From Perkinsus olseni (lineage: Eukaryota), in the NCBI GenBank assembly GCA_013115125.1, contig JABANN010000059.1:62001-90425 (forward strand): DNA of 28,425 nucleotides. Reading direction: 5' to 3'. Position numbers and translations under genes: made by a program. The notes below the pieces were generated by a model that had not been told where the DNA came from, ran no database searches, and saw only the letters and a program-made list of their open reading frames with translations. Positions 1 to 28,425 of this stretch are shown in pieces. The stretch's first letter is position 1. Every line of letters begins with the position of its first letter.

Positions 1-11
1 GCCCTTTTCAG

Positions 12-157
12 GTTACACTCGTGCTGATCACGATAAGCGGAATTCGCTGATCGCAGGTGAGTTGAAAGCACACGGGAATTCATGGCTTGCTGACGCCCCG
101 GGCCTGAGAGGTCGCCATGGTTGATGTCACTTTCGTACAGTAGCGGATTTGTGTTGA
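12..157 (+). CDS. Possible last exons of a gene entering from the left edge (unknown product)
   Basis: ttttcag acceptor ending at 11, open exon 12-56, gtgag donor at 57, tttcgtacag acceptor ending at 140, stop in the joined frame at 155-157. Too short to identify. Confidence 0.3.
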
Positions 158-201
158 CGAAATCGGGAGAGGTAGAGTGACTTTGTGAGGTTTTCACTAC
201 T

Positions 202-3200: not shown

Positions 3201-3540
3201 CTGTTTATCCACCGAAGAGATCGGCAAATGAGCCAACACTTTGAACGAGTGCAATCAAAACGAAACTCCTTCGATTGCGAACATGGCCGGAACGCTTTGT
3301 GTATTTATTCTTTTCGTTCTACTGTATGTGCTAGTTTGGCATGCAAATTACATCATTTCAGTTCCGTTATTCGATTAGAACAGCTCTTCTCAGCCTGAGA
3401 ATCTCAGGTACACAGACCTAGGCGGATTCACGCTGCAGTGTCAAGAATGTTTTGCCCTGGTCATCGGTCAGCATGGAGCTATCGAGCATTCTTCTCTCAC
3501 TGGCCACTCTCGTTTTCAAGAGATATCCTCGGGTTTGTGA
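202..3540 (+). CDS. OTU1: OTU1/YOD1-family deubiquitinase (N-terminal ubiquitin-like domain, OTU domain, C-terminal C2H2 zinc finger), 8 exons
   Basis: Manually spliced with GT-AG introns and consistent phases: 202-330, 746-857, 1367-1473, 1524-1708, 2094-2213, 2662-2714, 2761-2893, 3408-3540. Motifs: UBL (QVVSVGFPQQRLL), catalytic VPGDNSCMF, YTEAVLDKPAKKYVKWICQDSSWGGYIELSIL, LLHDDTHYD (catalytic His), and FTLQCQECFALVIGQHGAIEHSSLTGHSRFQE zinc finger. Confidence 0.93.
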
Positions 3541-3854
3541 TCTACTTGAGTGGATTGCGTTCAGTGGACGGATTGGGTGGCTCAATTCGATACAATTGTA
3601 CGCAAATCCCTGAATTTGGATTATCTCTGGTTTACCGAGTGTTTCAGTCTGAATTTCGAGAGCGATTTGGAAGTGTATTGATATTAGCCGATTGATCGGC
3701 CATTTCGCTCATCTGATGTCGCACGAGAAGATTTGAAATTCATTGGAATGAATTTCGGGTATTTCTGACTATTCAGAAAATTCAGAACTTCTCGCCAGAA
3801 GGCTGAAGCTCGTGCCACTCGGAGAAGTAGTTTTATGAGCAGCTCATAATTAGC

Positions 3855-8809: not shown

Positions 8810-9091
8810 GCTGCAGCGCTACTAGAAGGGATTCACTGATCCACTCACCCGTTCACTGATTCATTATCCATTAAAGTCTGTCTATCATCCATACGAGGCC
8901 ATGAGCACAGTAGTTCACAGGTTAGCCGTATTTCCGAACTCAGTATAGCAGTATTATGGAATGGACCCTCCACAGCGAGCAGGGGCCAAAACGAGTATAC
9001 TGCAGACACCAAAAATTGATAAACTCAACCGTTCAACACGTCCAGTCTCGAAAGCTGTTTTCCCGCTAAACGAGTAATGACTTAGCGATTT

Positions 9092-10412
9092 TTACTTCCT
9101 AGTCTGCTGACCGGCGATGCGGTTCTTCTTCATACGCATGTGACGGTCGTCAACGTTGGAGAGCTGGATACCATCGCCCTTAGGAAGAGACACCCAAGGC
9201 TTGCCCTCGTGACCGATGACGAAGACGTTGGAGAGACGGGTGGCGAAGTTGTTGCCAGCGGCATCACGGACGTGGATCATCTCGAAGTTACCGGGGTGAC
9301 GCTCGCGGTGAGTGATAACACCAACACGACCAATGTTATTACCGCCGGTCATCATGACGGTGGCGCCGATCTCGAACCTGAGGCACCAAGGTGGGAGAAA
9401 AGTTAAAAAAACCCTGGCGGAGCGAAGCACAGCGGAATGAGGAAGAGTTTCGTCAGACCATCTGCTGGATAGTCCGCACGTTTATGGACTTGGTAAAGCA
9501 GTGTTGTACAATTTACGCAATCATCATTCGAAACTTCCCTCATTCTACTGGCCCAAAGTCCCCCAAGAAACGAGCGATACTTACTTGAGGAAGTCGAGAA
9601 CCTTGCCGGTCTGGATGTCAATGCGGACAGAGTCGTTCTCCTTGATCTCGGGATCAGGGTAACGGATGGTACGGCCATCGTGAGTGTTGGCGTACGGGAC
9701 ACCCTTGGAGCCCATGTAGACCTTCTTGACCCTGCAGAGCTTGTAGGCAGCCTCATCAGGGTGGATCTTGTGGATGGCGAAGCGACCCTTAGTGTCGAAC
9801 AACAATCTGATCGAAGAAAAGAAAGTACACGACTGACGAAAATGGAGGGATGAGACGCTGAGGGATGGTCCAGTTGTGGTGGTGGCAGTACCTCCCGGCT
9901 AGTCCCCTAGCCAAATACCCGGACCTATCCCTTGCACAACAGTGGGCCGTATGAAACACGGCCGTCAACCCACGACGAAGGGAGAAGACGGTGGTGCCTC
10001 ATAGGGTCTTGTTGGCAATTATGAAGATCGTGTCGTGAGCGGCACCTGAAGTTCTCCTTGGTCTTTTCGATGGTGATCACATCCATGAAACCGGCGGGGT
10101 AGGTCATGTCAGTGCGAACCTGCACAGCACAAAGTGAACCACATCCTTCGAGCGAGAAGACGACAGTCCGAACGGCCCGAAAACTACCTTGCCGTCGACC
10201 TTGATGAGTCTCTGCATGACGATCATCTTGACCTCGTTGTAAGTGAGAGCGTACTTCAGACGGTTGCGGAGAAGCACGATGAGAGGCATGCACTCACGCA
10301 GCTTGTGGGGGCCGGTGGAAGGCCTGGGGGCCCAGACGCCGGCGAGCTTGTCGAGGAGCCAGTGCTTGGGGGCGAAGACGCGCTTCAAATGCTTCTTAGG
10401 ACCGCGAGCCAT
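9092..10412 (-). CDS. RPS4: 40S ribosomal protein S4 (eS4), 4 exons
   Basis: Exons 10412-10188, 10119-10046, 9806-9585, 9377-9092, all GT-AG. Translation [23 protein letters not shown]...[14 protein letters not shown]...[19 protein letters not shown]...[12 protein letters not shown]...[10 protein letters not shown]...[12 protein letters not shown]...SLPKGDGI is unmistakably eS4. Confidence 0.98.
9435..9545 (-). ncRNA. Intronic box C/D snoRNA in RPS4 intron 3
   Basis: On the minus strand: box C ATGATGA (9527-9521) and box D CTGA (9456-9453). They are flanked directly by a long terminal stem, gaatgagggaagtttcg / cgaaactcttcctcattc. Same strand as the ribosomal-protein host, in a 207-nt intron. 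Confidence 0.82.
9861..9984 (-). ncRNA. Candidate structured intronic RNA (possible H/ACA-type snoRNA) in RPS4 intron 2
   Basis: The 239-nt intron has several stems on the minus strand: tccctt/aaggga, gtggg/cccac, ggccgt/acggcc, ggctag-ggga-ctagcc, agggataggtcc/ggaccatccct. An ACA follows the second hairpin, but there is no clean ANANNA H box. Confidence 0.35.
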
Positions 10413-10447
10413 GTTTTGTTTAGAACGGGAAAGACCTTTCGAAAACC

Positions 10448-10475
10448 CTGGCGATGAGGGAGGAGGAGAAGTTGA
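10448..10475 (-). promoter_or_regulatory. Polypyrimidine tract + AG upstream of the RPS4 start (candidate trans-splice or 5'UTR acceptor)
   Basis: Minus strand cttctcctcctccctcatcgccAG, about 35 nt upstream of aaacaaaacATG. Confidence 0.35.
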
Positions 10476-11120
10476 TCGATTTTGGCGCGATACGCTACGT
10501 TGAGGAAATGTAAGAAACGCAAGATTGCGCAAGTTGCATTCGTCCGTCGCGCCGAAATCGTTTGCCGGCGATCGGATTTATGCTGAACATTCAAGCAAGC
10601 CTCAACCCGTCAACGTCGCGTGGATGTTGTCGATGTTCTCGCTCACTACTCCTGCAAAGTCGGTTGCCTCCCTCCAGGCCCGACAGTCGTTTGTCGCGAA
10701 AATTTACGGAACCAGCATCGGGTTTCGACATCAAACAGCGTTGGGCACGACACCACATCACCTGTGCGGTACAGGCTGTACCTCACATGTAACTTCGTTG
10801 TATACTCACACCGATCACAGAGTAGCGTTGAATCCGCCCGTCACGATCGAGTTGACTTTCCCTTGGCTGTCCGTCCGTTGGCGTTGTGTGCACGGAGCTG
10901 TCCCGCTCATCGCCTAGCTTACTAGGAAGATCTTCCGACTCTTTCCGTCTTCTACCAGCATCTCGCCGACGTATCTTTCAATACATGGCAGCTAAGATGT
11001 TTTTGACATTTGCCTCATCTATTTGACTCGCGTCTTTCATGTGGAAGCCATCCATTTTCGATGAGAATGAGAATTCCCCATTAGACTCTATTTCAGTTTT
11101 TACAGTTTTTTCATCAAAAA

Positions 11121-11733
11121 ATGGACGATAGCATGAGTGCCGGCGAGCTTCGACGACGCTACGGCCCCGGTGGCTCTGCACCCGACTCTGATCTCACTGC
11201 AAGTCAATTGAGGGCAAGGCACAACATCCATAATAATTCATTCAAGGATGATGGCAGTGGTGAGCATCTTCGTCTTATCCGCTTTTATAAAGGCTTCCTT
11301 GCTTAGCTGATCTGAGGGTGTTTATTGAACTCGTTTTGAAACCGTCTTTCACGTGTGAATGTTAATGCCAGAATCGATTCCGACTTTCAGACTAGGTTTA
11401 ATGAGACACGTAGAGCACTCCGCGTGTTCAATAGATCAGGACTCTCCTGAGTCAGGAGAGTCACGAGTCTCAAGAACACCCCAAGGAACGTATTTTCCAC
11501 GTTAAATTCAGTACAGGGAGCGGTCCTGGAATTCAGGCGAGGTCTATTGAACCACCCCACTGATTTCCAGTCGTCTGCTGATACGCGACTTAGTCAAACG
11601 AACTCGTCCCGCGAATTGAGATTTTCTTCCTGTAGTTTGCCCATGGTTATCAGGTATAACCCCAATGATTGTTGTCGCCCTCATCGTCCTGCTCGTTGCC
11701 GCAGCAGGAGCGATGCTCAAGTATTCATCGTAA
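11121..11733 (+). CDS. Small (72 aa) protein with a single C-terminal transmembrane helix, 2 exons
   Basis: Exons 11121-11259 (gtgag donor) and 11654-11733 (ttatcag acceptor) join in phase: MDDSMSAGELRRRYGPGGSAPDSDLTASQLRARHNIHNNSFKDDGSGITPMIVVALIVLLVAAAGAMLKYSS*. A-rich context before the ATG; divergent from RPS4. Confidence 0.75.
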
Positions 11734-12185
11734 ACGCTTTTGTGAGTGTTATATAACAACAAGTGTCACATTTTTTGTTTTTTCTAGTGCGTTGAGTTTG
11801 TCCAGTTGTGAGGTCTTTTCACCTCAAGCGAGTCTGTGTTTGACGTGAGCACACCTACGCGCTGCGGCTTCTGCTGCGAACGACGGACCTATCGTTGTGG
11901 CCACTTTTCAAGGATCGGGCTACTTGTTGAAGCGCAACCACTGTCTTCGTGAGAATTGTCGAGAATGCTCGAGGTTATGCCTATGCTCCCGCAGAGATTA
12001 TTCCTTTGATTGGTTCCAAGAAAATTGGGGCGCTTCTCGGCCGCGAGAGACCTCAATTCAGCGAACTCAGTGCCACAGTGTCGAATTCGCGCGCAATCTG
12101 CTGTCGGCGAACTCGGATTTAATAGAACCTTCAGGATTGTGGGCGATCGAGAGCACCTTTTCGAATTGCGTTGATCAAAATAGCC

Positions 12186-13000
12186 CTATTTTGACAAGTG
12201 CCTCACTGGGCTGTCCTTAACAACCCCATGGCTAGCTCTGTCGTTCACTGTTAATCGCTGGTCTGTGGTATGCGTTGAACCATTGCTGAGAATCTCGAGT
12301 AGGTCATTCGAACGCAAGAGCAACATGATACAGAAATTTCCGGGGCAGTGAGTGCAAGAACTTGTTCTCATGTACATGCGTGCAAAGCAACTGTCTAGTG
12401 GGCGGCGTCAGCACGGCGTGAGCATCACCAACAAGCCTCGAGACTTCCTTTGGCATTACGGGAGGCGGAAGGGGATGATCAAGGCCTGAGAAGAATCCTG
12501 GCAGGATGCACTGTCTACATAACACAATCGAGCTGTGCTGCTCATACTAGCTTCGCATTATCAATCCATTCTCTCAACTACTCCACTTCCTATCTGCTCT
12601 ATCTCTTTCACTATGAGCCCAATCTACTTATGTTGTGTTCTACAACTACATTGCCAAACAACGAGATAATACACTGATATGATACGAAAAATGCTCTGGA
12701 AATGACCGTCAAGAGCTACGGGGTGCTGCAGAGGACAAGGCTAACAGATGAAGTCTTCCCTGACCGGCGGAAACAGAATCGCCAGTCTGCTTTCCAAGTT
12801 GATCGCAAAACGATTGACCTCACCGGGCAGTGTGTAGTGCAGTTGCCGGGGTATATAGATATCCAAGACGTCGTTCAAAGCGTCATCGGCCGAGACGTCC
12901 TGCATCGGCTCGGGATGGTTGTTGAGGTAACCCGAGTATGGCAGATCGAAAGGCACTCGGCGCTCCAGGGAATGGATGCTTGAGCTCAGCTTCTCCCGTA
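12186..13000 (-). pseudogene. Possible decayed coding sequence, unidentified
   Basis: Protein-like ORF pieces at 12741-12956 and 12304-12525, the latter continuing through in-frame stops. No recognisable motif. Confidence 0.2.
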
Positions 13001-13051
13001 TCTTGCCGCCGATTGCACGATTTTGCCGACGAAGGCAGTGACATGAGTCAT

Positions 13052-13114
13052 CCGAAAGTATCCACGCTGAGGCTGGTCATGACTCATGACCAGCCTCGGC
13101 GTGGATACTTTCGG
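13052..13114. repeat. 31-bp-arm palindrome with a 1-nt centre
   Basis: ccgaaagtatccacgctgaggctggtcatga-c-tcatgaccagcctcggcgtggatactttcgg, one mismatch. Confidence 0.9.
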
Positions 13115-14327
13115 GTATTTTCAGAACCATCCTGAAGTGTGGTCTCCAATAAGATATCACCGCATCATAACATCCGATCACCCCGCGTATCAATCGCTAC
13201 AGAGAGCCTCTAACTGAGCACATCGACAAGAGTCTAACTACCGTAGTTACGGCGTAGTTACACTACGCCGGAACCGGCGTCGGACAGTGAACTCGAGCAC
13301 AATGAGCAACACGCATAATATGCGTCGCATATCTTCGCAAGCTCGACATTCCATGAGAACTGAGCACGTGGGTGGAAGTCTAAGGCGGTACCGGCTTGGG
13401 GCTATAAACTCGGACACACTCGGCATTCTCGGGAGCGGCAAAGACGTCATCGTACCTCCTCTGGGAGCGTACTGAAAGCTGCGTTCCTCAAAACATGGTT
13501 AGCGAACTGATGAATTTGCCCTCGGAACTTGGCTATGTACCTAAAGGAGATTAACGCATTCGAAGATCAACGTGGCTGAAACTACCCTGGCTCCTCCTGT
13601 TGGACACATCGTGCGGAGTCTACTCACATGTCGTTGCCGCAGTGGTCACGCAGGAAGGTTTTCACAGCACTGTTCAAAGGATTGTGCATCAATCTCGCGT
13701 CGAGCCAATCGCCTTGCATTTGATTAACTCTGTTTGCTAGCTTGTCCAAACCGTAATGGTTACAAACCTGACACCGTGACGATTTTGCAGCTCACGAAGA
13801 TCCTTCTTCCTTTCAAAGGAATCCTTTGCACGCCGGCTTTTCACCGGTTCTGATTCTCACCTGTTTCACATTCTCTGCTGCGTGCATTAGTCGAGAAATT
13901 TTCTGCCAATCGCATGCTCCTGACAGCATTATTTCCTCGGTACTCGGCGCCAAGTGTGGTAGGGGTGTAAGACGCGGACTAAACGAGATTAATACAACGT
14001 CAGGGTTATGGTAAGACTGAAAATCTCATATTTTCGTGAGAAATTCGATCTTGCTGATTGCCATAAGCGCGCTTTAGTCCGTCCTCAATTTCCCAGCCTG
14101 AGCGGTTGAGTATGGAGCCGTGACTCACGGCCCGTGAGTGGTTACTGTTCGCCGTTGGTGAAGTATTCGAAGGGACCTCCCAGCCCGGTCTTGCCCGCTA
14201 CGGCTGTTGCTGCCTTCAATATCTCCCCGGCTGGATAGAGGAACACCATCACATGATAAGGAAGTTACTGGAAAAGGGCAGAAATGATGAACCGATAGGC
14301 TCGCTTCGGGAATGTCGCCTACCGTAA

Positions 14328-14400
14328 GGGGGACTAGCTCAAATGGTAGAGCGCTCGCTTAGCAAGCGAGAGGCACCGGGATCGATGCCCGGGTTCTCCA
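14328..14400 (+). tRNA. tRNA-Ala (AGC)
   Basis: 73-nt cloverleaf: acceptor GGGGGAC/GTTCTCC-A with the G3:U70 Ala identity pair, D arm GCTC/GAGC, anticodon arm CTCGC-TTAGCAA-GCGAG, T arm CCGGG-ATCGATG-CCCGG. Confidence 0.96.
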
Positions 14401-14405
14401 TTTTT
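14401..14405 (+). terminator. RNA Pol III oligo-T terminator
   Basis: TTTTT immediately 3' of the tRNA. Confidence 0.75.
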
Positions 14406-16368
14406 CGTTGAATCCGAATCTCGGCGGTGCGAGCATTAATGCCGAGTCGGCATTGCCGACTGCCGGAGAACTCATACTCCTCGGACGCAATTTCAGGAGA
14501 ATGAGGTCCACCATGAACACCATTCGCGCTACTCGTCCCTAAAAGTTGGGAAAGTGCGACCACATCAGCCACGGTGGCTGAGCCACTTGTAGCAGCGCAA
14601 CGCAACACCTGTTACCGGGGAATTACATGCCCGAGGTGTATCGCCCATAGTACGACCAATGCACTCCGGGGCACTAACCAGTGGCAGCATCATCCCTCAA
14701 CTCCAAAAGAATGCGGTACACACGATGGAACTTGATTGAGACGCTAAAACACAGGAAAAGTGGTGATAGGAACGAAGGAGTACAACGACTATTCCGCAAT
14801 TACAATATAAACGACTATGAGTATCAGCTAGCATCGTCGAGCAGCAATGTAGTCAATGCACAACTCGGACAGAACCACAGCCTCGGAAGTAATCGTTAGC
14901 TACGATCGTAGGCTTGCAAAGTCATGTGACTGGGTTTTAGTCGGGCTGACCAAAACCCAGTCACTCGAACAAATTCACAATGGAAATGCGTGATAGAAGA
15001 GCTTAATAGGGACGGGCGGAGCGCTGCGGTGCTTCACGCACTGAAAAGACACGCAACGAACTAGAGAACTAGGCGAGTGAGAATACTCCCAAAATGTCGG
15101 TTGTGATAGTGCCGTGCGGTCCTCGAGGCTCGAGCACGGGTGTCATAGCTGTGGTCGATGGCGCTGTACCGTCGGTACAGTACCGATTAACGAGTGACTC
15201 GTAGGATGCCCTCCGACTCGGAGGGCGAGAAGAGACTTGAGCAGCGGAAGAATCTACCCTTTCCGTGGAATTTGGATAAGTTGCTCTAAAAATTACCCAA
15301 CTACTTGGGTTGTACGTTTGACGGCCCAGAAAGCTGCGGGCGGGTTCGGATTCCATGAGAGAAGGCGAGCACTAGGAGAGCTGTTGGAATAGTTTTTCCC
15401 GAATCCCTCGCATCCTATTTTTTAAATAGTATTTTACCCCTTCCTCAACTAACTGCACTGTGCCGAGTTATAGTGCTCCGAGTTCCTCGGCACAAGCCGA
15501 ATGTAATTCCAACCGTAAGGATAGCTTTCTTCTAGTATGACGGGCAACGCGAAATGCCTCAGCTTCTTCCGCCGAAAAGTCTTCAGTCACCCTCGACTCA
15601 CTGCGCCTCTCGTTGCGGCTTAGTCAGCTGATAGCCCACCCACCACTCTCGAGTCGTTGATCCAACCTCTATCGCAACATTGGGCGGGAAGAGCGTAGCT
15701 GTTAGCCATCAGGGTACTCAAAGTCAATGGCTCAGTTGAATCCTGAGATTCTTTCACTAAAAACACGCTGATGAAGTTATCAACTAGTGTCGAGCTAAGC
15801 TTAGGTTCCACATTTGCCCACCAGAACAACTACAGTAGCTTCTGACTCAGAAGTCACAGAAAAGTAGTTTCTCAGAGGTTCTGGAAAAGGAACTTCGCTG
15901 TGATCAGAGCGGCGCTAGAGATTCATTCCTCTGTTCAACCTCACCGGCCGTTGACAACGGGGGCAGAGACGGATTACAAATCGTCGCTCGATACAGTAGA
16001 GCAATATTGGTGACGGCGCGAGGTCTTCCGAACACACAAGGCTAGCAACGCTAGCCAAGCTAAGCCTGAGCACTAGCAGAAGGAGTGCCATCTCTCCTCG
16101 TTAGAGGCTCGCTATGGTTCCTGTGTCCCTTCCCCTAAGCCGAGGTTCCCGGGGTAGGCACGAGGAGCACTCTGGGTTTCAGGAAGAGCCTGATATTGAC
16201 AGGGATTTACCCTAAGTTAGGGTGGTTTTGGTGTCACACCAATGCAGTGTGCCTGCGTGTCTCCTGCGCAGCGCACGCCTACGCTCCAAGGTGGGCTGCG
16301 TGTTTAGCATAAGCGAAGTACTCCCTCGCGGAGTTCCATCAGGATAGCTTCGGGTGAGGCTCTGCATA

Positions 16369-19347
16369 ATGGCAGCCCCAGCGATTCGCAAAGCGGTCAA
16401 GCTACGGATATTATTATCATCCTCACCAACGGCGCTGAGCACATTCAATCTCAGGCTGAGATTCTCAGCGACAGCAGAGGTGTGCTCTTGCTCTCGGGAG
16501 CGAGCCAATACACGTATAAGCTTTCCTCGGGCGCATCGTCTGCCGCGGCACAGACTCGCATCCTTACCGGTGAGCGCACCTTGTGTCCCGACGGCTCTGG
16601 TAGTCAGAAGTTCGGATACATACAAGTTAGCCCAATCTCCAAGTAGACCCCAGTCACATCATCGCTGTCCGGATGCTGCTCGTGAGCAGGTACTTTTACG
16701 CTGCTATTGAAGCGGACAGGGATCCAGGGACCGCACCGACTTTCGTCTATTTCGAAGGTGGCCCTGGCGGCAGCAGTCTTACTGCAGCACTTCGGCAAAA
16801 CGGACCATGCATAAGAGATTTCGACACCCGACGTCTGAGACTGAACCTGTGAGTCACTGCGGGGCATTGCTATCGAGTGGAACGTACCTTGGAAGTTACT
16901 CATGGACGGCCCGAGCCAACGGTATGCGGATCGACGCGCCGGCTCCCACAGGCTTCAGTGTGGGACCAGTCGCTCGAGGCACGGAGGACTTCATGCTCGA
17001 TCTGTGAGTATCAATAACACTAGCTGCCAGCTAGTAGCTGCCAGCTACTAGCTGGTATTCTGCGTCCGCCAACTTTGCTTGTTGCAGGGTCGACTTTATC
17101 ACCAAGTTCACTCAGCAGAATCCAATCTTCAATCGAGACCTGCACCTTGTTGGAACTTCATCCTCAGGTGTGGTCAGGGCCGTTGTAGTCGTGGCAGTGC
17201 CTGGCCATTTCAGCCGCCTTCGTGGCGATGCTTGCAGCCCGACTCGCCGAGAAGCCTCAACCCCAGGTTCATCTTGCAGGCGTGATGCTAGTATCTGGTG
17301 TGGTGTCACCGATTGACATGTGAGTCTCGTCGTCATCATCATGAGAGCACCGATTGATATGTTCCTCTGTACACCGAGCAGTGCAAGGTACATTTAGCCA
17401 CGTTACTCCGCGGTTGATCTGCGCTCCAGAAGATCAGAAGCAGTATGATATGAGTGCTCAGTTACCGTCGAGCTGTGCACATGGCCGATGCCCGAAACTT
17501 GCTCCCTAAAGAGGAGTTGAGCTCTCTGAAACGTTCCATGCGGAAACTACTGGCGTGTTTCAGGATATCGAAAATGACCGCGGACCTTCAACAATGTGAT
17601 ACGCAGATTGGACAGTGGAACTCAAATGGACCAGGAAAACCTCCAATTTCAGGTAGGCTGAGGTTCGCATCTACCGACTTACGATCGACTCTTTCCGCCG
17701 GCTTTTTTCTTTCAGCCTTCTGCAATCAAGCTGTGGGAACCTGTGATACTGCGGCCCTCAACCCGATGAAAGAGAAGAGCATAAGCTAGTGAGTCGTCCG
17801 GTGACCAGGTTCAACACTGCTCGCAACGAGTTGCTATGTACACGTACACGAAATTCGTGTCACGAATAATGGGTGCATACAACAGACACTGTCTGGCAGA
17901 GAGTTCTGAATGATTTGGCCTGTGAGCTCGATCGAACGGCTGCAGTGATATGCTTCTGCAAGCAGCGGCATAGTTAGTGCCACACAACCGCAAAAGTTGT
18001 CATCACTTCCGCTCGCTCACCCGGAGGACTTTATACGTGCTCATTCTGAATCCCAACCCCTTCTTTCTTCACCCAGGCGTATATCGACTTTTGGCGGAAG
18101 AAACATCACTTGAATCCTCTTTAAAAGGGGCTCTTTTCTTGATAAGGAGTAGAAGCTGTTCGGCGATACTCACACCACTCTGAAGCTCGGCAAATTTCTG
18201 ACCTCTCGAGCCCGGTCCCGCTCCCACATTCAAATTTTAAATTAATAGAATCAGCGTTGGACATTTGTCGACCGGACTGTATCAGTTATGACGTCCGTGT
18301 ACCAAGTGGACAAGAGGAGACAAAGTATGTCCTCAAGTCTTGGACAGTAAACTGTAGCACTGTCGGTTCAAACAGAACTACTATAATAGCAGTCGTTCTG
18401 AATCTTTGCTCTTTGTTTCGTTCCAATCTCCACATTGAGCACCCTCGCGGAAGCGCGGCGGGTCTAAGCAATAGTTCTCTCCTGTCCTGTTAGATCGATA
18501 CGTTGCTCAACGACCAGGAAATCCAGCAGGAGCTCGGCGTCTCCAAGAAATGGGAAGCTTCTTATGATGAGGTTATGGCTATTCAACAAGCTGTACGCTG
18601 AGCTTGATTTGCTTCCTTAAAAGGTCTATAATGCCTACAACAAATACACGACCTATAATACGACTTATTTCGTGACCAGCCTCCTTGACAAGGGATTGAA
18701 AGTAGGGAAAAAGATATCTTGGAATCACCCACTGAGATCTTGCTTCATTCCGGCGGGTGGGGAGTCTGCAGTATTGACTGCTCAGAATTGATCCATTAGC
18801 TGGTGGTGTTGATTAATCAGAGGCATTCCTTAAACACAGCTTGTCATCATTGCTTGTGACTGAGGAGGACTTTTGTTTGAGTAGTGCTGTACTATGTACT
18901 AGTCATGAACGGGGACCAGGACTATATAACTAATTCTGTTGGTGCCGAGACTTGGGTGCTCAACTTAAAGGGAGCCGACAAGTACGGCGAGAAGTTGCGA
19001 GGCGTCCCTCGTACCCCTGTCAAGGTCAGATCGCTAACTGATCACCTCGCTTGCGATGAATCGTTCCTGTCTCAGTTTGGGGGAGTCGAGCTCGGAATGA
19101 TGAGAGCTCTCGTGTATTCCAATCAAGGAAGACTCGCCATTATCGAGGTATGTAGCTCTGTCTGTCTGATTGTGATGCGCTACCATGTGTGGTGCTCTTC
19201 CTGGTAGCCATTATCGCCGATAATTTATCGGCATCATCCTGTTTCCAGGTGACGAATACAGGTCACATTATTCCGCTATACAAGCTTCTTGAGTTGCAAC
19301 AAGGATTTTATGCCTACCTCTCCGGCGACCTGTGGAAGAGCGACTGA
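16369..19347 (+). pseudogene. S10 serine carboxypeptidase-like gene, copy 1 (type A); full length but probably disrupted
   Basis: Exons give YFYAAIEADRDPGTAPTFVYFEGGPGGSS, NGPC, YSWTARANGMRIDAPAPTGFS, HLVGTSSS, YDVR, VLVMNGDQDYITN and TNTGHIIPLY, with the stop at 19345-19347. Lesions: +14 frameshift at 16455-16468, and two acceptors altered relative to copy 3 (ctcgg vs ctcag near 16528; tactat vs aatag near 18895). Confidence 0.8.
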
Positions 19348-21054
19348 CCTTTATCTGCTTAACTTGGGGAAGTCTGCGATAGAGACGCAGAATTGCCTTC
19401 AGTGGTAACAAGTTCTGAAAGTCCATTTATTCCCTTCCCGAACCAGAAAGAGTAAACTCTTTGAGTAGAGGAGCGTTTGATTTGATAACCTATTTGATAA
19501 GTCCTATTATCATCTCCTATTTATTACTTATTCGTTTTCATCAAGATTACTTCGACCTCTACAACAACCTCTACTCTTGTGTTAACTATATGGCTCAGCA
19601 CAACTCAGAGAAAGGTTGGGAACCTGACAAGAATTTCAGAGTCTTATGATGATCTCGCTACGGAGGTTTTTTGAACCATTTCGCAGCGATAAAGAGAGGA
19701 TCTGCGGAATTTTTTCCAATAACTTTCTGTCTACCTCAAAAAGTCACGTCGATCGTGCCTAACTGTTGGTGCACCGGTCCCGTCGGATTACACCAAGCAG
19801 TGAGCTCAAGAATGGCTCTTCACTGAAGGCGAGTTCGATAGCCCTCATCGACAAAAGCAGATGAGAAACTTGCGCAGTTCATCGTCCAGCATCAATCATA
19901 GATCCTCACCATGTGAGTTGAATGTTTGGAAGGCATCTTGACGCTGGGAAGTCAATGCCGTCTCGGTATTACCGAGACAGTTGCCCGCTTGTGCGTTGTG
20001 TAACACAACATAGTGTAGCAAACATGTCGGAGCTGTACTTGGTCAGACCCCACCGACTCTTCCGAGCAGAGGCTCCAGTGAATCCAGCTCCGTAATTTCC
20101 TAATGGTATCGAGCCAAGAATTGTCCAGGTTCTACCGGTGGTTCACTTGGAGAGCATGAGGTCAGCGAAGTACTGAGTGATGCTCCTTCGAACTATTCTC
20201 CCTGGGGTTACCCGAGTCGGGCACTGCGTTGTCAAATCCAGAACAGGGAACAGAGTTGCTTGTTAAGCGTAGGTTAATTGTAACACCGACCGTGGCCCAG
20301 TCCACTGGATCGACTGAATACTGTTCAACCCGAGCTGACGTTGACAGTATATATTATTGTCGGATATTACGGGAAGGAAAACAGAAAGTGCTGCTCGCGG
20401 GACCCTGGGGTAGGCCACTCAGGAGCACCTTGGTCCCAGGTCCTTGGATTCTGGACTCTGGCACGCTTGTTTGGCTGGCCTTTCTGAGGTTTGGAGTAGC
20501 CTGCCTGTTCATCCGCGGACTAGAGTTTTCTTGCTCAGGAAGGGCGTTGTTCTCTGTGATCGGAACGACACCAGAGTTTCACGCTCCAGCGAAACCACAA
20601 CGGGGGCAGCGACTGCTAATATAATCGTAATATGCACTATAACTCAGTACACTGTACTGAGTACAGCGTGGCTATTGAAGCGGCTATCGAGGTGAAACCA
20701 GTACTGAGCAAGTCTGTAGCTGTTACATAACGTAAAGTCGCCACTACGTTGTCGCTATATTGCAAATTATACGCAGCAAATGGCGGCAAGTAGCGCCGAG
20801 CTAACTTACCCAAGCTGAGCCCGAGTATCAGTAGAAGCAGCGCCACCTCTGGTCGTTCTAAACCCGCTGTGGTCCCGGTGTTCTATTCGTGTAAGCCGAA
20901 GGTTTTTGGGGTAGGCAGTGCCTACTAGGCACTGAGAGCACTCTGCGTTACGAGAAGAGTCTGTTACGGACAGGCTGCCATCTTAGCGTGGTTCTACTGT
21001 CACACCGATGGAGTGTACGTAACGTACGCTAGTGTAACGTACAGTACGTTACAC

Positions 21055-21525
21055 TAGCGTTGCATTCGTGTTGTGTAAAACGCGGGTGTTTCACGCGTTA
21101 CGAGAACCATAACGCGTCATGAGCATTAATTCAGAGTTTAACGCGCGAAACGCGAAATTGGTTCATTACGCCAACATGAAATACAACCGGGTTCCGGTTA
21201 CCGGAAGGTATCGATGTACGAAATAATATCGAAAGTATGTGCTGTTTCTGAGACACAAGAGTACGCTGAGCTGCGGTCAAGTGAATGACGGACTCGGCAG
21301 TACAAGAATCGGTGCGAACCGCAGCGCCGCTTTGTGTTAAACGCGGTTTCCTACCGCGTTAACGCGTAGTACGCGTTATACCGCGCCATGGCGTTGCCGT
21401 TAAACGCGTTATGACATTGAACGCGCGCGTTATACCGCGAATTGGTCGAATAAGACAACACGTCCTGTTTTACGCGTGAAAAACTTCGCGTAAGCCGTTT
21501 TATGCGCTTTACGGGTGCATCTCTA
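21055..21525. mobile_element. Non-autonomous hAT-like element (MITE), about 470 bp
   Basis: Absent from the paralogous upstream regions of copies 1 and 4. Imperfect TIRs TAGCGTTGCATTCGT vs TAGAGATGCACCCGT (revcomp of the right end), with shared subterminal tttcacgcgt and many ACGCG motifs. Degenerate 8-bp TSD gagtgtac (21011-21018) / ctgtgtgc (21526-21533) vs the empty site cagtgtRc. Confidence 0.7.
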
Positions 21526-21659
21526 CTGTGTGCCCGCGTATCTCCAGGCAGGAGTCTCGCGTGCAGCACACACCTACGCAACAAGGTGGGCCACGGGTTC
21601 AGCATAAGCGAAGTGATCTTGCAGAGTTCTATCAGGAGATATCCAGGTTATTCTCCATT

Positions 21660-22066
21660 ATGACAGTTCCAGCGATTCGAGAAGCGGTCAAGCTATGGAT
21701 ATTACTATCATCCTCACCCACGGCGCTGACTCAGCGCCTCTGAGCATTTCGGATCTCAGTGACAGCAGAGGTGTGCTCTTTCTCTCGGGAGTGGGTCAAC
21801 ACAGCTTCAGAAATCGCTCCGGTGCACTGTCAGATTCCACACAAACCCACATGCCAACCGGCAAGCGCACGTTGTGTCCCGATGGCTCTGGCAGTCAGAA
21901 CTTTGGATACATACAAGTCAGCCCAATCACCAAGTAGACCCCAGTCACATCATCGCTGGCCGGATGCCGCTCGTGGGCAGGTTCTTTTAGCTGCTTTTGA
22001 AGCAGACAAGGATCCAGCGACCGCGCCGACCTTTGTGTACTTCGAGGGTGGACCCGGCGGCAGCAG
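21660..22066 (+). pseudogene. S10 carboxypeptidase-like copy 2 (type B), 5' fragment
   Basis: MTVPAIREAVKLWILL... with a +14 frameshift at 21730-21743. Homology ends abruptly after YFEGGPGGS at about 22066. Confidence 0.85.
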
Positions 22067-23445
22067 AAAAGTTCTAGAATCGATTCAAGATTCTAGAATG
22101 CCCCGTTGTGTCTAGACCGCACCACTTTTTGTACCACATCGGGCCGATGCAGAACCACCCTCCGGAGCCGAAACCGGAGCCAGCCAGGAACGGAATATTC
22201 AACTCACATTCTTGCTGTCACCGTACGGCCGTTCCCATACGAGCATGTACCTCTTATTCAGCTGCTCAACCACGCTGCGATGCTCCACTGCCCCTGACAC
22301 AGTCTATTTCTCGCGCACACGTATACTTCCTTTCGAGAATTAGCACAATTTATGAACCACAGGAAAAGACGTGATGCATCAGGCGTTCAGGAAGGCGTTC
22401 ACCGTTCACAGAGAAGTCCGTACAGGAAGGAGCAGGCCCGTAGCAGAAGGCACGTGCTCAGAGTAGACACGACGCTGCAGTCTCCGCTGTCCCATTCTTT
22501 AAAGGGGATGAAGGCCAATATCTCAGGGACTGCTGGCGACGGTCAGGAGAAGGCAACAAAAAAACCGTGAAAATAACAGAAAAACAGTGTATCCTTCACC
22601 ATGAAGAGGATCCACCGAACAGTCTCACTACCGCACTGGAACTCAGTACAGTGTGGTTATTTGAGACAAGGGTCAAGGAAAGATGGAGCCGCACTCGAGG
22701 AGAGTAATGAGATGCTTAACCCTAATCTAAATTAGAGTGCATACTCCGAGTATGATACTCATGCTCGCGACCGCGAGGCTTGCACCGCAAGGCGCATAAT
22801 TAGGTCAGACGAGTATCGGAGACTGATGAGGCGCAGTAACAGTGAAGGTAGTTGCAGGCTGGTCGAGGGACAACCGTGCCTGTGCATTGACTAGGTCTCT
22901 CCCTCTCGACTGCTAGTCGAGAGTCCGCGCTGCTAGTCGACGACTAGCACGGAAAAGAACGTAAAAGAACTCGAACTCGGGAAGTCGATTTACACATAGC
23001 CGAACTCCAATGAAGCTGTACCAGGTAAGACCCTTGCCAAACGGGGTGAAATGGACTAGACACACTCCTACCACAGAAATACGTACAAGGCTAGCAGTGC
23101 TGGACAAGCGGAGCCCGAGCCCTAGTTGAAGCAGTAGACCGGCTGTGGTTCCGGCGTTTCCTCCTTCTAAGCTGAGGTCTTCGGGCTAGTCACCAGCAAC
23201 ACTCCTTCTTACCAGAACACCAGCTAGTCACCAGGCTGCTACAGCCTGGCTTCCACCTTAGCGTGCTCCCGGTGTCACGCCAGGGAAGCGCCCCAGGAAC
23301 TCCGCTCCTGCATGTCTCCTGCGCAGCGCAAACGTACGGTACAAGGTGGGTCAGGGGTCTAACATACGCGTACTTCTCTCGCAAGGCGAAAGCCTATCAG
23401 GATATCCTCGGGAGCAGGTACTCTTTTCCGAGGAGCATTCGTGTG

Positions 23446-26109
23446 ATGAGGGCCCCACGGATTCACAAGGCGCTATCGATATCATCACTATTCTCACCGA
23501 CGGCGCTGAGCATTCCTAACCTCAGCGACAACAGAGGTGTGGTATTGCTCTTGGGAGGAGTCAACATGCGTATATCCAGCGCTCAGGCGCACCGTCTGAT
23601 GCCACACAGGCTCGCATGCTAGCCGCCGAGCGCACTTTGTGTCCCTACAGCACTGGTAGTCAGAAGTTCGGATACATACAAGTTAGCCCACTCAACAAGT
23701 AGATCCCACTCAAATCATCGCAGTTTGGATGCTGACAGCATCATGCTGTCAGTGAGCAGGTACTTTTATGCTGCTATCAAAGCAGACAAGAATCCAGGGA
23801 CCGCATCGACCTTCATGTATTTCGAAGGTGGCCCTGGCGGCAGCAGTCTTACTGCAGCACTTCGGGAGAACGGACCATGCGTAAGAGATTTCGACACCCG
23901 ACGTTTGAGACTTAATCTGTGAGTTCCTGTATAGTATTGCTAGAGAGCTGATGGGAGTGTGTCGAAAGTTACTCATGGACGGGCCAAGCCAACGGTGTGT
24001 GGTTCGACGCGCCGGCACCGACAGGCTTCAGTGTGGGGCCAGTCGCTCGGAGTCTGGAGGACTACACACCCGATATGTGAGCTACGAGAACGCGAGCTAG
24101 TATACTTTATCGGCTTCGCGTGTTGCAGGGTCGATGTTGTCACCAAGTTCACTCAGCAGAATCCAACCTTCAATCGGAACGTGCACCTCGTCGGTACTTC
24201 ATCCTCAGGTTTGATCAAAGCCGTTGTAGTCGTAACATCACTTGGTCATTTTCAGCCGCCTTCGTGGCGATGCTTGCAGCCCGACTCGCCGAGAAGCCTC
24301 AACCCCAGGTTCCTCTCGTAGGTGTGATGCTGATGTCTGGTGTGGTGTCACCGATTGACATGTGAGTATTCTATATCGTCGTCATTATCATGTGAGCATC
24401 GATTGGAATGTTTCTTTATGCATCGAACACTCCGTGGCACGGTCAGCAACGCCCGATGTCTTCTGTCAAGGTCAATCTTCGGTCCAAAAAAATAAAGAGC
24501 AGGATTAAATCAGCATCAATCGATTCAATCGATTCGACTGTTCAGTTACCGTGGAGCTGTGCACATGGCCGATGTCCGGAACTTGCTCCCTAAAGAGGAG
24601 TTGAGCTTCACAGGATCGTTCTTCGGTTAAACTACCAGCGTGTTTCAGGATTACGAAAATGACTGCAGAGCTTAAACAATGTGAAACGCAGATTGGACAG
24701 TGCAACTCGAATGGTCCAGGAAAATCTCCAATTTCGGGTAGGCCGACCTCATGAATAATCGCTCTGTCTGCCGGCATATGATCGACTTTTTTACTTCAGC
24801 CCTCTGCAAACAAGCCGCGGGAACTTGCGATACTGCGACGCTCGACCCGTTGATGAAGAAGAGCATAAGCTAGTGAGCGATCTCGCGATTAGATGCGTCG
24901 ATAATCTCTAAAGACATTTTTGTCAATGAGAATTGAGAGATGTTGTGCGAAACTCACACAGCTCGGAAGGTCTACAAATGCCCGATCTGATGCTTCGGGT
25001 CCAGCTCCGGTATTGAAGGTGTGGATATTTTCTGACCGGACTGTATCAGTTACGACGTCCGTGTTCCAAGCGGCCAAGAGGAGACAAAGTATGTCCTTAA
25101 GTCTTGGACAGTAAGCTGTGGCACTGAATAGAACTTGTATCAGAACATTCGTACTAAATATTTGCTTCTTGTCTCGTTCCGCTCCTCGCGTTGAGCACTC
25201 TCTTGCCGGCGCGACGAATTCGACTACAGTGCTCTCCTGTCTTGTTAGATTGACACGTTCCTCAACGACCAGGAAACCCAGAAGGAGCTGGGCGTCTCGA
25301 AAAAGTGGGAAGCTTCTAACAACGAGGTTATTGTTGTGGGAAAGATCCCAAGTTGAACGTTGTCTCCTTTTTTGTGAGGTCTTTGACGCCTACAACAAAT
25401 ACGCGGCCTACGATACGACTTATTTCGTGGCCAGCCTCCTTGACAAGGGATTGAAGGTAAACAAAGAGGAATCATCCACTCAACAATGGTTCCATTCCAA
25501 TGGGGCTGGCAGGATTCACGACTCAATATTAAAACGCTTTTCAGAAAAGCCATAACAACCAGAAAAGCCTTTTCTGATTTATATATGGCGCATAACTTTG
25601 ATACTGCCGCTGTATCCGCTTATCCGTCCCTTAGCCGCTTAGAATAGGTACTAGTCATGAACGGGGACCAGGATTACGTATGCAATTTTGGTGGTACCGA
25701 GACTTGGGTGCTCAACTTGAAGGGAGCCGACAAGTACGGCGAGAAGTTGCGGGGCGTCCCCGCTGTTCCCGTCAAGGTAAGATTCGGCCCCAACGATTGT
25801 GATTAGCAATCCCTGTCTCAGTATGGAGGAGTCGAACTCGGAATGATGAGAGCTCTCGTGTACTCAAATCAAGCACGACTCGCCTTAATCGAGGTATGTT
25901 ACTTTGTCTGTCTAGTTGCGATACACTACGCCAGCAACACGGGGTAGCCAATGGCTACTAGCCGTTGTCGGTAGTACCGACTCGGTACCATCCTGTCCGC
26001 TTGTGTTCAGGTAACAAATGCCGGTCACATTATTCCGCTATACAAGCCTCGTGAGTTGCAACAAGGATTTTATGCCTACCTTTCTGGCGACCTGTGGGAG
26101 AGCGACTGA
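23446..26109 (+). CDS. S10 serine carboxypeptidase-like protein, copy 3 (type A); apparently intact, multi-exon
   Basis: The exons I traced join with GT-AG in phase: MRAPRIHKALSISSLFSPTALS..., QKFGYIQV, YFEGGPGGSSLTAALRENGPC, YSWTGQANGVWFDAPAPTGFS, HLVGTSSSAAFV (Ser), VMNGDQDYVCN (Asp), TNAGHIIPLYKP (His), stop at 26107-26109. Confidence 0.85.
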
Positions 26110-27448
26110 GCCTCCTCTGTCCTTAGAGTGTCCGATAGGGACTCAGAATTGCCCTCAGCAGTAACAACTTCCGAGAGTCCATTGAGTTCATTTAGTCTTT
26201 AGAGCCTGGGGGAGTCAATTACTCGAGTATATGAGCGTAGTTCGCCTATCTGATACATCCCATTATTTTATTCTCTTCAAAACTATTCGTTTCCATCGCG
26301 ATTACTTCGAGTTTGATTCAAGCTCTGTTGTTGTGTTCACAACGTGGCTCGGAAAAGCTCCCTCGGAGAGAGGTTCTTTGTGCTAATCGCGTGACAAATA
26401 TACGTATTATGAGCATAATTATTGTATGGCTGCCTACCGAGACGCGGCGTCTCGACGCAGCATGAGTACAGACTGTACTTTTTGCATTGTCCACACTGTA
26501 GCGTCTCAGGCGCTAGAAGAGCAAGCGCCGCGGAGCCTGAGGCGCTAACAGAGACAAGCGACAATTTGAGGTCAGTGAACGACCACGGCTGATCGACGAG
26601 AATGGAAATCGTGGAGTGAGGACGCTCTTACCGCACAATGAAGAGACGTTGATTTGTGATGAGCCATCGTCCGCACGAATGACACTAGTGCAGATACACG
26701 CCTCGATGGCTGAACCTCAGTCACGCTTCTTAGATGCGTTGGGAGTGAGAAGCGATAAGAGCTCCAACCTCCTTCAGCGTGCGTCATTGGGCGCTTGAGA
26801 GCGCGTACCAATCATCAGCGCGTATGATGACACAAGCTTCCGACGGAAGCCTTCCGTTGTGTCTCTCATTATGAGAGTCTCATACTCAAGCGATATTGTA
26901 CTCATAAGACTTTCGCGCCTTCCCAGCCCAATCGCAGGGATTGAACCCCTTGTTGTGGACGTAGGACCAGGGTGGAGCAGGACGGGGGACATGCTAGCTG
27001 GACCGCAACAACCCCACCGAAGAAACCCATATTTCTCTGTGGCAACACGACTGAGAATTTGCTGAGCTCACTAAGCTGAGCTTAGTGAGCTGAGCTTAGG
27101 GTAACACGTATAGTATACGTCGTATACTCAAGCAGGCGTGCAATTGCAATGCAAGTGACTGCAAAGTGCCAGATGGCTCTCTCAGACCTATGGTGCGATG
27201 TGCAGCGATGGTGAGTGATCATACTACTGTAGTACTGAGCCAGTCTGTAGCTATTATATAACGTCGCACTACTTTGTCGAGCCTGTTGTTGACAGGCTGC
27301 TACCTTAGAGTGGTTCTCGTGTCACACCGATGCAGTGTACTTGCGTGTCTCCTGCGCAGCGCACGCTACAAGGTGAGCCACGGGTTCAAAATAAGCGAAG
27401 TTATCCCTTGCGAAACTTCATCAGGATATATTCGGGATCTTCTCCATA

Positions 27449-28190
27449 ATGACAGTTCCAGCGATTCGCGAAGCGATCAAGCTATGGATATTACTATTAT
27501 TCGCACCAACGGCGCTGAGCATTTCGAATCTCAGCGACAGCAGAGGTGTGCTCTTTCTCTCGGGAGTTAGTCAACACACCTTCAGAAATCGCTCCGGTGC
27601 ACTGTCAGATTCCACACAAACCCGCATGCTAACCGGCAAGCGCGAGTTGTGTCCCGATGGCTCTGGCAGTCAGAAGTTTGGATACATACGAGCCAGCCCA
27701 ATCACCAAGTAGACCCCAGTCACATCATCGCTGGCCGGATGCCGCTCGTGGGCAGGTTCTTTTATGCTGCTATTAAAGCAGACAAGGATCCAGCTACCGC
27801 GCCGACCTTTGTATACTTCGAGGGTGGACCCGGCGGCAGCAGCGTTGCCGCGCCACTACAACTGAATGGACCATGCATACGAGATTTCGTCGCTCGACGT
27901 CTGAGACTCAATCTGTGAGCCCCTGTATGGCATTTCTGGATATGTGAGCTTTGAGCGCGCCAGCTGATATACTTCGATCAAAGACTTGCAGGATTGATGT
28001 TATTACCAAGTTCACTCAGGAGAATCTCTCCTTCAATCGAAACGTGCACCTCGTCGGCAATTCATACTCAGGTGTGTTCAAAGGCGTTGTAGCCGCGGGA
28101 TTGTCTGGCCATTCTCAGCTTCCTTCGTGGCGATGCTTGCAGCTCGACTCGGCGAGTCGGACTCGCCGCGAAGCCTCAACCCCAGGTTCA
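27449..28190 (+). pseudogene. S10 carboxypeptidase-like copy 4 (type B), disrupted
   Basis: Signal-peptide-like N-terminus, FFYAAIKADKDPATAPTFVYFEGGPGGSS and HLVGNSYS. The YSWT...DAP..TGFS exon is deleted (about 27935), there is a +14 frameshift at 28152-28165, and homology is lost after about 28190. Confidence 0.85.
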
Positions 28191-28425
28191 TGTCGTGTGT
28201 TTCTTTTCGAAGGATGTCGGACTGCACCTGTTGGGACTCCCAACTTGGGAGCCTTTTTGGGTTTCCATGTCAATGTTCTCAATGTCGCGAGAAGATGCAC
28301 TCATTCCACTAGATTAACACAACCAGTCGATAATACCAATTAATACTAATGGATGAAGCCGCCTGTGCACAGGAGATTGGGAGAGAGAGGCAATCGGGAT
28401 AGCAGTAATGCGTAGATATTCACAT

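Follow-up and report, generated by a model that had tools for sequence, protein, structure and literature searches.

The closest described counterparts of the scars reported here are the excision footprints of Ac/Ds, known from plants, Saccharomyces cerevisiae and Candida albicans, whose P-nucleotide palindromes have the complement of the element-adjoining base at their centre and which make use of microhomology (PMC5873905). The same source gives palindrome arms of up to 20 nt in yeast and, in C. albicans, 28 footprint types among 128 events, most of them short (PMC5873905). Hermes likewise generates 8-bp TSDs, with a target preference of 5'-nTnnnnAn-3' (PMC10368747); at mPing excision sites, repair through TSD-derived microhomology is described (PMC4561436). 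Genomes do not normally reveal where transposons have been excised, because the marks left behind are short and differ from one another. Here we describe a footprint-like mark that is long and uniform, found repeatedly in a window of 28,425 nt of Perkinsus olseni DNA. Each such scar is a 22-mer built on an 8-mer N, in the order N1-7, the reverse complement of N (rc(N)) and N2-8.

Nineteen perfect 22-mers occur in the window, together with 12, 11 and 10 raw matches having one, two and three mismatches, respectively. After two phase echoes (17027 and 27071) were dropped, 40 scars with at most two mismatches were retained, divided 19/11/10 among zero, one and two mismatches (Table 1). No perfect 22-mer appeared in 20 dinucleotide shuffles, and ten mononucleotide shuffles gave means of 0, 0, 0.3 and 2.7 for zero to three mismatches, placing the chance expectation for two-mismatch scars at 0.3 per window. 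Varying the unit length yielded no perfect match of the same type at k=6, 7 or 9-13 and 19 at k=8, so that the sharp k=8 peak over shuffled sequence predicted in the initial annotation is present within the window. Only the 8-bp unit is seen here, as against TSDs of 5 bp for Transib and about 9 bp for MULEs. Across a grid of 32 geometries (k=5-12, offset 0-3), k=8/offset 1 alone was enriched (19 matches versus 0 shuffled); the remaining cells lay at shuffle level, except for single chance matches and an echo of the 14439 scar, and the even-hairpin arrangement N+rc(N)+N (offset 0) gave no match at any k from 5 to 12. In all perfect scars, position 8 is complementary to N8 and position 15 to N1. 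Mismatches are scattered along the scars with no fixed position, and there is one nested re-hit. The scars decay with age, and their 19/11/10 distribution suggests a long history of scarring.

The ten sites that the initial annotation called perfect indeed carry no mismatch, its five one-mismatch sites carry exactly one each when N is taken by majority, and its nested pair at 17020-17055 is a scar of CTAGCTGG whose last eight bases (GTAGCTGG) were struck again. Its count of 16 sites was too low, as the perfect scars at 3387, 13311, 13807, 17846, 23728, 26836, 26863 and 28230 had been missed. Scars are not confined to the range that it gave, 14117-28166, since others lie at 3001, 3387, 3834, 10761, 13311 and 13807. 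They are unevenly spread, with 36 in 13.3-28.4 kb (about 2.4 per kb) versus four in 1-13.3 kb. Clustering or local hopping was considered and rejected, as neighbour gaps of at most 60 bp numbered 5 versus 4.7 expected.

Table 1. Scars, irregular footprints and related palindromes in the 28,425-nt window (N, 8-mer target; A-D, S10 copies).
Feature	Positions	N or motif	Context
Perfect scar	3387-3408	TTCTCAGG	
Perfect scar	13311-13332	ACGCATAT	
Perfect scar	13807-13828	TTCCTTTG	
Perfect scar	14117-14138	GCCGTGAG	
Perfect scar	14439-14460	ATGCCGAC	tRNA-Ala 39 nt upstream of scar
Perfect scar	15165-15186	TGTACCGA	
Perfect scar	16448-16469	ATCTCAGC	coding exon of copy A
Nested pair	17020-17055	CTAGCTGG, then GTAGCTGG	second event (17034-17055) perfect; copy A intron
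Perfect scar	17846-17867	ACACGAAT	copy A intron
Perfect scar	19210-19231	ATTATCGG	copy A last intron
Perfect scar	20645-20666	CAGTACAG	
Perfect scar	20911-20932	GTAGGCAC	copy A empty at 16154-16161
Perfect scar	23728-23749	GATGCTGT	copy C small intron; not in A, B, D
Perfect scar	25967-25988	GTCGGTAC	copy C last intron
Perfect scar	26836-26857	GCTTCCGT	
Perfect scar	26863-26884	CTCTCATA	
Perfect scar	27106-27127	ACGTATAC	
Perfect scar	28145-28166	CGACTCGC	copy D coding exon; empty in A (17240-17247) and C
Perfect scar	28230-28251	GTTGGGAG	
1-mismatch scar	10761-10782	CCTGTACC	
1-mismatch scar	14566-14587		
1-mismatch scar	15415-15436		A/T-rich
1-mismatch scar	18116-18137		
1-mismatch scar	20427-20448		
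1-mismatch scar	21185-21206	AACCGGAA	
1-mismatch scar	21723-21744	GCGCTGAG	copies A and D empty (D at 27512-27519)
1-mismatch scar	22740-22761		
1-mismatch scar	24519-24540		
1-mismatch scar	25944-25965	GTAGCCAT	copy A empty at 19204-19211
2-mismatch scar	3001-3022		
2-mismatch scar	3834-3855		
2-mismatch scar	16228-16249	core GTGTCACAC	palindromic core common to copies A, B, D
2-mismatch scar	17882-17903		
2-mismatch scar	19488-19509		
2-mismatch scar	19955-19976		
2-mismatch scar	20202-20223		
2-mismatch scar	25529-25550		
2-mismatch scar	26929-26950		
2-mismatch scar at 27064	27061-27097		within 17-nt-arm odd palindrome; complex, partly decoded
Irregular footprint, two-sided extension	21014-21060	TGTACGTT	read directly
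Irregular footprint, one-sided extension	13047-13114	GTCATGAC	read directly
Odd palindrome, 9-nt arms	15208-15229		followed by GAG (N6-8 of inferred N); weak
Partial scar, 19-mer	13241-13259		N1-7, then rc(N) reduced to its final 5 bases, then N2-8
Isolated odd palindrome, 11-nt arms	11440-11462		candidate one-sided footprint

Palindrome enrichment in the window depends on parity. With a 1-base centre, the counts of perfect palindromes are 37/14/6/2/1/4 at arm lengths of 7/8/9/10/11/at least 12 nt, compared with 1.6/0.5/0/0/0/0 in shuffles, and palindromes with even spacers (0, 2, 4 or 6) are not enriched over shuffles window-wide. Two irregular footprints could be decoded base by base, and in both the palindromic extension adjoins the remnant of the target duplication. 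The first (21014-21060) runs from N1-7 (21014-21020) through five palindromic bases (AACGT), 17 nt in which the right flank is repeated in inverted orientation, and a central A, the complement of N1, into N2-8 and the flank, with 11 matching bases additional to the palindrome. The second (13047-13114) begins with GTCAT (N1-5) and continues with a 31-nt inverted right-flank copy, a central C, again the complement of N1, and N2-8 with the flank. Short footprints of the classical hAT kind (+6 to +8) lie at chance level in the window, and intermediate joining products are absent from it. Such a lack of short-footprint enrichment is not known from any host examined for Ac/Ds.

The inferred targets are also biased. 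In a symmetrised logo of 30 scars, position 2 is T in 26, C in 19, A in 10 and G in 5 of 60 cases, and the logo deviates from background solely at this position (p=0.0005) and at its mirror, position 7 (A/G). The preference is thus for T/C and not for strict T, and it resembles the nTnnnnAn of the Ac/Hermes type. Together with geometry and parity, this bias bears on an origin without any transposon, in which a template switch during replication (quasi-palindrome mutation), or fold-back priming at an ordinary break, would copy the opposite strand before returning. Short inverted duplications are generally known to arise by template switching, and the window holds no element, yet the process has neither a set length or offset, when k=8/offset 1 alone stands out among 32 geometries here, nor a parity rule, when odd centres alone are enriched, and it would not confine a target bias to positions 2 and 7. 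A 1-base centre is, moreover, too small for a snap-back loop. We regard such an origin as very unlikely.

That the scars are insertions follows from the tandem serine-carboxypeptidase-like (S10) copies A-D, some of which retain the single 8-mer where others are scarred. The scars at 16448, 20911, 21723, 23728, 25944 and 28145 are exactly 14 bp longer than the single 8-mer of a paralog, and only empty or scarred states are seen among paralogs at scar sites. The empty 8-mers that had been listed previously (16154-16161, 17240-17247, 19204-19211, 27512-27519 and 27528-27535) are all in place, with the scarred copies longer by exactly 14. The scar at 16228 may predate the duplications, since its palindromic core is shared by three copies. 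All but two of the 40 scars are intronic or intergenic; the two exonic ones shift the frame. At 16448, a scar not found in copies B, C or D, the signal-peptide part is read in frame 1 up to 16452 and the remainder, beyond the shift, in frame 3. The closest proteins carry a Perkinsus olseni annotation, and the scar is read through in the translations of three annotated gene models of this species (P0006, P0007 and P0008). At 28145, the protein match switches frame across the scar. An extra intron segment of 300 bp in copy A is too diverged relative to copy C for element ends to be read.

These observations also speak to a sequencing, amplification or assembly artefact. Whole-genome amplification is known to yield inverted chimeras (PMC13265396). 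On the other side, point mutations within the scars form a graded series, scar content differs among paralogs, and one scar is translated in the three gene models, which were separately annotated. Artefacts of Tn5-type libraries would involve 9 bp, not 8. In addition, sequencing runs from two studies contain 31-mers of the region at a level of 0.98-0.99, although these runs are possibly the source of the same DNA. An artefact seems extremely improbable.

We consider it probable that every 22-mer marks a donor site, now healed, from which a cut-and-paste transposon using hAT-type chemistry was excised. Such transposases reportedly nick one base into the flank. On insertion, the element would duplicate its 8-bp target N, and its excision by the transposase would leave both flanks as covalently closed hairpins, each with the complement of the base adjoining the element at its tip. 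The left flank strand would then read N1-7 followed by rc(N), and the opposite strand of the right flank rc(N)1-7 followed by N. If host nucleases nicked these hairpins several bases from the tip, the unfolded 3' tails, rc(N) and N, would be complementary and could anneal, after which the flap would be trimmed, the gaps filled and the ends ligated. The product would always be N1-7 + rc(N) + N2-8 (+14 bp), provided that both extensions together exceeded eight bases. The uniformity of the scars would follow, as any pair of distal nicks yields an identical product after annealing and flap trimming. From the scar sequences we infer the transposon, the hairpins, their distal nicking and a joining step based on annealing (microhomology- or SSA-like).

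Several features agree with this scheme, of which the 8-bp unit, the odd palindrome centres and the bias at target positions 2 and 7 are independent of one another. The building unit is an 8-bp TSD, as in hAT footprints, and the palindromic additions are centred on the complement of the element-adjoining base, which is how hAT footprints are described (PMC5873905). The sequence logic is compatible with an origin from annealed tails with flap removal and fill-in. The hAT-type reading proposed in the initial annotation thus gains from the k=8/offset 1 geometry, the odd palindromes, the nTnnnnAn-like bias, the irregular footprints and the +14 polarity, but neither a hAT element, a transposase nor a filled allele was seen in the window. 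Its proposal that complementary unfolded hairpins are joined agrees with the logic of the product, whereas opening at a fixed place is unnecessary, as any distal nicks suffice. Nor is the very active family that it invoked needed, as moderate activity over a long time would, on a rough estimate, be enough to give the density seen.

The structure of the scars likewise bears on whether a host enzyme could make the breaks with no mobile element involved, be it a domesticated hAT-like transposase or a staggered nuclease acting as a programmed or accidental mutator. The window contains no element and the scars are very uniform, and domesticated hAT transposases that make hairpins do exist, such as Kat1 (cited within PMC10368747). 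However, in every scar the inverted copy is bracketed by N2-7 in direct orientation on either side, which requires that the target duplication existed beforehand; cutting once where the target is not duplicated could not provide the two flanks. We judge a host enzyme alone to be quite unlikely.

No inverted termini matching at 10 or more of 12 positions and bordered by exact 8-bp repeats, as expected of an element with TSDs and TIRs, were found when the window was searched for them. A Pfam profile scan of 38 ORFs of the window detected no transposase family, the only domains being those of 40S ribosomal protein S4 and Peptidase_S10. An exon-like piece at 12702-12929, considered as protease-like, was set aside as it had no Pfam support. 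Two metagenome scans for DNA of relatives found nothing. The density of about 2.4 scars per kb is high for a locus without a resident element, which counts against the hAT reading, as do the missing element, transposase and filled allele, the chance level of short footprints and the mixed T/C preference at position 2.

The scars could instead derive from a cut-and-paste superfamily other than hAT whose members duplicate 8 bp, form hairpins on the flanks and feed the same repair route, whether related to MULE, Merlin, P, Zisupton or Dada or as yet undescribed. The 8-bp TSD is not exclusive to hAT, as Merlin makes 8-9 bp and has left remnants in Perkinsus marinus (PMC8101967), a species in which Dada, distant kin of hAT, P and MuDR, is abundant (PMC3706591); MULEs also make flank hairpins (PMC5499845), and the window contains no hAT. 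In the Perkinsus literature that we searched, Dada (6-7 bp TSD) and Merlin remnants are mentioned and hAT is not. Against these candidates, the Muta1 hairpin product is 43+43 nt and thus even (PMC5499845), when only odd-centred palindromes are enriched here, and Dada has TSDs of 6-7 bp and targets tRNA and snRNA genes (PMC3706591), when k=6 and k=7 gave no match and the targets are of many kinds. P-element footprints retain element ends. A Hermes-type preference also fits the bias at positions 2 and 7. Another superfamily is, on balance, an unlikely source.

If hAT-type excision followed by annealing repair is the correct account, its implications may reach beyond this locus. Tentatively, we suggest that nearly all hAT-type excisions in this perkinsozoan lineage may pass through one annealing route, the lineage either lacking classical end joining or bypassing it, so that each visit would leave the same 22-bp bar-code. 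The genome may then hold a countable and datable record of tens of thousands of insertion-excision cycles of an element that has since become rare or been lost, and the scars may contribute heavily to indels and, in gene families, to gene-killing frameshifts. A footprint that is long, uniform and self-identifying would allow past cut-and-paste activity to be counted and dated from sequence even where no element remains, and its uniform product would serve as a readout of hairpin opening and break joining in a little-studied lineage of alveolate parasites. The scars are a consequential class of mutation, with two of the 40 lying in coding exons of the tandem S10 copies. The k=8 pattern scan can be applied to any genome and would test how lineage-specific the signature is.

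In the literature that we searched, no stereotyped TSD/inverted-TSD/TSD scar is described, and supplementary footprint tables may bear on a precedent for the 7+8+7 form. The underlying chemistry is already published (PMC5873905), and thus the novelty lies in stereotypy and abundance and not in the class of mechanism. The scars resemble template-switch mutations in placing a short inverted copy beside its source, but they have a fixed unit, a parity rule and a target bias, all of which template-switch mutations lack. They also share palindromic additions with V(D)J P nucleotides, Transib and the MULE Muta1, where these result from flank hairpins opened off-centre (PMC5499845); unlike these systems, in which hairpins at the border give even palindromes, the window shows no enrichment at spacer 0. 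The scars are like Ac/Ds footprints in their 8-bp TSD and in the probable use of microhomology at the joint, but the full 7+8+7 form dominates here and short footprints are at chance, unlike the heterogeneous Ac/Ds set; the latter were recovered as reporter revertants, whereas the scars are fixed in a genome. With Hermes they share the 8-bp TSD and a bias at exactly positions 2 and 7, which is here T/C and A/G in place of the T and A of nTnnnnAn. Finally, as for mPing (PMC4561436), the duplicated target would supply the homology behind a uniform repair, but mPing repair restores the original site, whereas here the homology would lie between unfolded hairpins and 14 bp are added.

An unbiased scan for the scar architecture, in which an 8-base unit N appears as N1-7 + rc(N) + N2-8, found 19 perfect matches across the 28,425-base window, compared to none in 20 dinucleotide-preserving shuffles. 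Units of 6, 7, or 9-13 bases gave no sites in the same window-wide scan. Across a grid of unit lengths 5-12 and offsets 0-3 (bases dropped at the overlap), enrichment was confined to length 8 with offset 1 (19 vs. 0), all other cells being at shuffle level except for one echo of the 14439 scar; the peak at eight bases predicted in the initial annotation is thus seen in the window. Matches with 0, 1, 2, and 3 mismatches numbered 19, 12, 11, and 10, against shuffle means of 0, 0, 0.3, and 2.7, and 40 sites with at most two mismatches were kept after 17027 and 27071 were excluded as phase echoes of neighboring or nested scars. The ten sites initially listed as perfect all follow the formula with no mismatches, and the five one-mismatch sites (on rescan) and five "empty" paralog 8-mers were also correct; eight perfect sites had been overlooked, and the range of 14117-28166 was too narrow, as scars span 3001-28251. 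Of the 40 sites, 36 lie beyond 13.3 kb. The density contrast between 1-13300 (four sites with at most two mismatches) and 13300-28425 (36) is about eight-fold, and neighbor distances across the window revealed no clustering beyond chance. At 16448, 20911, 21723, 23728, 25944, and 28145, the scarred copy exceeds the other copies, which hold the single 8-mer, by exactly 14 bases; the scars are therefore insertions, as first claimed.

Every scar consists of two overlapping 15-base palindromes, each with a single central base, and in all perfect scars the bases at positions 8 and 15 are complementary to N8 and N1, respectively. The window as a whole contains 64 perfect palindromes with a single-base center and arms of at least 7, vs. 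~2 expected, while those with 0, 2, 4, or 6 central bases occur at shuffle level. Spacers of 3 and 5 are also enriched, an excess we read as the same objects, either with innermost pairs counted as spacer or with a mismatch beside the center. A snap-back loop is impossible with a 1-base center, and such a center is what would remain of a covalently closed hairpin whose strand had been joined at one base from the end of the duplex. Position 2 of the scar 8-mers, when symmetrized, is T in 26, C in 19, A in 10, and G in 5 of 60 cases (p=0.0005), with position 7 as its mirror; positions 1, 3, and 4 and their mirrors show no bias, and no conserved motif was found flanking the scar sites. The hAT transposase Hermes is described as preferring 5'-nTnnnnAn-3' and making 8-bp duplications (PMC10368747). 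Scar targets, T/C-rich at position 2, resemble Hermes targets in their 8-bp unit and in being biased at positions 2 and 7 only. At the sequence level, unit length, palindrome parity, and target bias are three independent features that point to one chemistry.

Excision of the hAT type is thus the probable origin of the scars, while the transposon itself, its filled state, and the repair pathway are what we infer from them. No element with a target-site duplication and terminal inverted repeats was found in the window, nor any transposase among the 38 window ORFs scanned, and metagenome scans found no further DNA from relatives. In the proposed mechanism, unfolding would give the left flank a top-strand tail of rc(N) and the right flank a bottom-strand tail of N, complementary to the left one. 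In-register annealing, flap trimming, and gap filling would then always yield N1-7 + rc(N) + N2-8 at any nick positions, provided both palindromic extensions together exceed 8 bases, and therefore uniformity could arise from annealing without a fixed cut. This would require hairpins usually opened several bases from the tip and an annealing-dependent joining route, consistent with the chance-level occurrence in the window of classical short footprints (N1-7 + 0-2 palindromic bases + N2-8). Two irregular footprints (see table) are what the hairpin model predicts for joining without full complementarity and, on this model, show that nicks can fall far from the tip. In the 21014 footprint, N1-7 is followed by five bases complementary to N8 through N4, then by 17 bases of the right flank copied in inverted orientation, a center complementary to N1, and finally N2-8 and the flank; 11 matching bases lie outside the palindrome proper. 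About ten more odd palindromes that stand alone, with 7-11-base arms, are candidate footprints of this kind.

The mismatches in imperfect scars are scattered over the sequence, the pattern that later point mutation should give. Three paralogs have one degenerate scar core in common, and at 17020-17055 an existing scar took a second hit on its equivalent 8-mer. By rough estimate rather than computation, ~50 scars in ~15 kb over roughly 0.1 substitutions per site would take only some 10^-3 to 10^-2 excision scars per genome in each generation; since so low a rate suffices, the "very active" family originally proposed is not required. Independent hits fell on the same short last-intron stretch in two paralogs, one in copy A (19204-19231) and two in copy C (25944-25988), their targets lying a few bases apart.

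Serine-carboxypeptidase-like copies (Peptidase_S10), at least four in 16000-28425, are arrayed in tandem across the right half of the window. Copies A and C share 73.5% identity over 3073 aligned bases, and the nearest proteins, which are annotated Perkinsus olseni, show 89% identity to a 328-aa ORF. With P. olseni proteins mapped onto the window, 38 of the 40 scars are intronic or intergenic and two lie in coding exons. The 16448 scar is translated through in three P. olseni gene models of other assemblies (P0006, P0007, and P0008), and window words are shared by sequencing runs of two studies, which may be the source of the window DNA; together these argue against a single-assembly artefact. 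In model P0006 an exon-like piece at 12702-12929 is linked to copy A (16452-16643) over 3.5 kb including a tRNA gene, apparently a way for gene prediction to get around the frame shift from this scar; two other models of the copy A gene are marked partial. A one-mismatch scar at 10761 lies about 350 bp upstream of the ribosomal protein S4 gene. The 4442-7558 gene has lower per-exon identity to its P. olseni protein than copy A and no Pfam family; in a language-model look-alike search its product weakly resembled RAP/FAST-like organellar RNA-binding proteins of Perkinsozoa and Chlorophyta.

Genes, exonic scars, and irregular footprints in the window
Feature	Position	Strand	Description
Multi-exon gene	4442-7558	+	567-aa hypothetical protein annotated Perkinsus olseni, 72-100% per exon
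40S ribosomal protein S4 gene	9092-10410	-	several exons; RS4NT, S4, KOW, 40S_S4_C domains
Irregular footprint	13047-13114		odd palindrome, 31-base arms, preceded by N1-5 of right-arm-initial 8-mer
tRNA-Ala (AGC)	14328-14400	+	lone gene between scars 14117 and 14439
S10 copy A	16369-19344		near full length; aligned exons 96-99% identical to protein annotated Perkinsus olseni
Exonic scar	16448		copy A; splits signal-peptide part (frame 1) from remainder (frame 3)
Irregular footprint	21014-21060		N = TGTACGTT; N1-7 + 5 bases + inverted flank + center + N2-8
S10 copy B	about 21660-22064		first exons only
S10 copy C	about 23446-26106
S10 copy D	27449 onward		leaves window end
Exonic scar	28145		copy D; protein match switches frame

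Perkinsus marinus carries Dada elements with 6-7 bp target-site duplications and tRNA targets (PMC3706591) and Merlin remnants (PMC8101967); no report of hAT elements in Perkinsus was found in the literature searched. Hairpins on hAT flanks, P-type palindromes, and microhomology joining are already known. In the literature that our search covered, neither a dominant stereotyped 7+8+7 product nor its use as a genomic signature was found, and the product may already have turned up among reporter footprints elsewhere. Published hAT footprints in yeast have palindrome arms of up to 20 nt, with microhomology in 88-89% of them, and 28 footprint types are given for 128 events in C. albicans (PMC5873905). 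Unlike these heterogeneous C. albicans footprints, the scars in the window represent one dominant 7+8+7 product.
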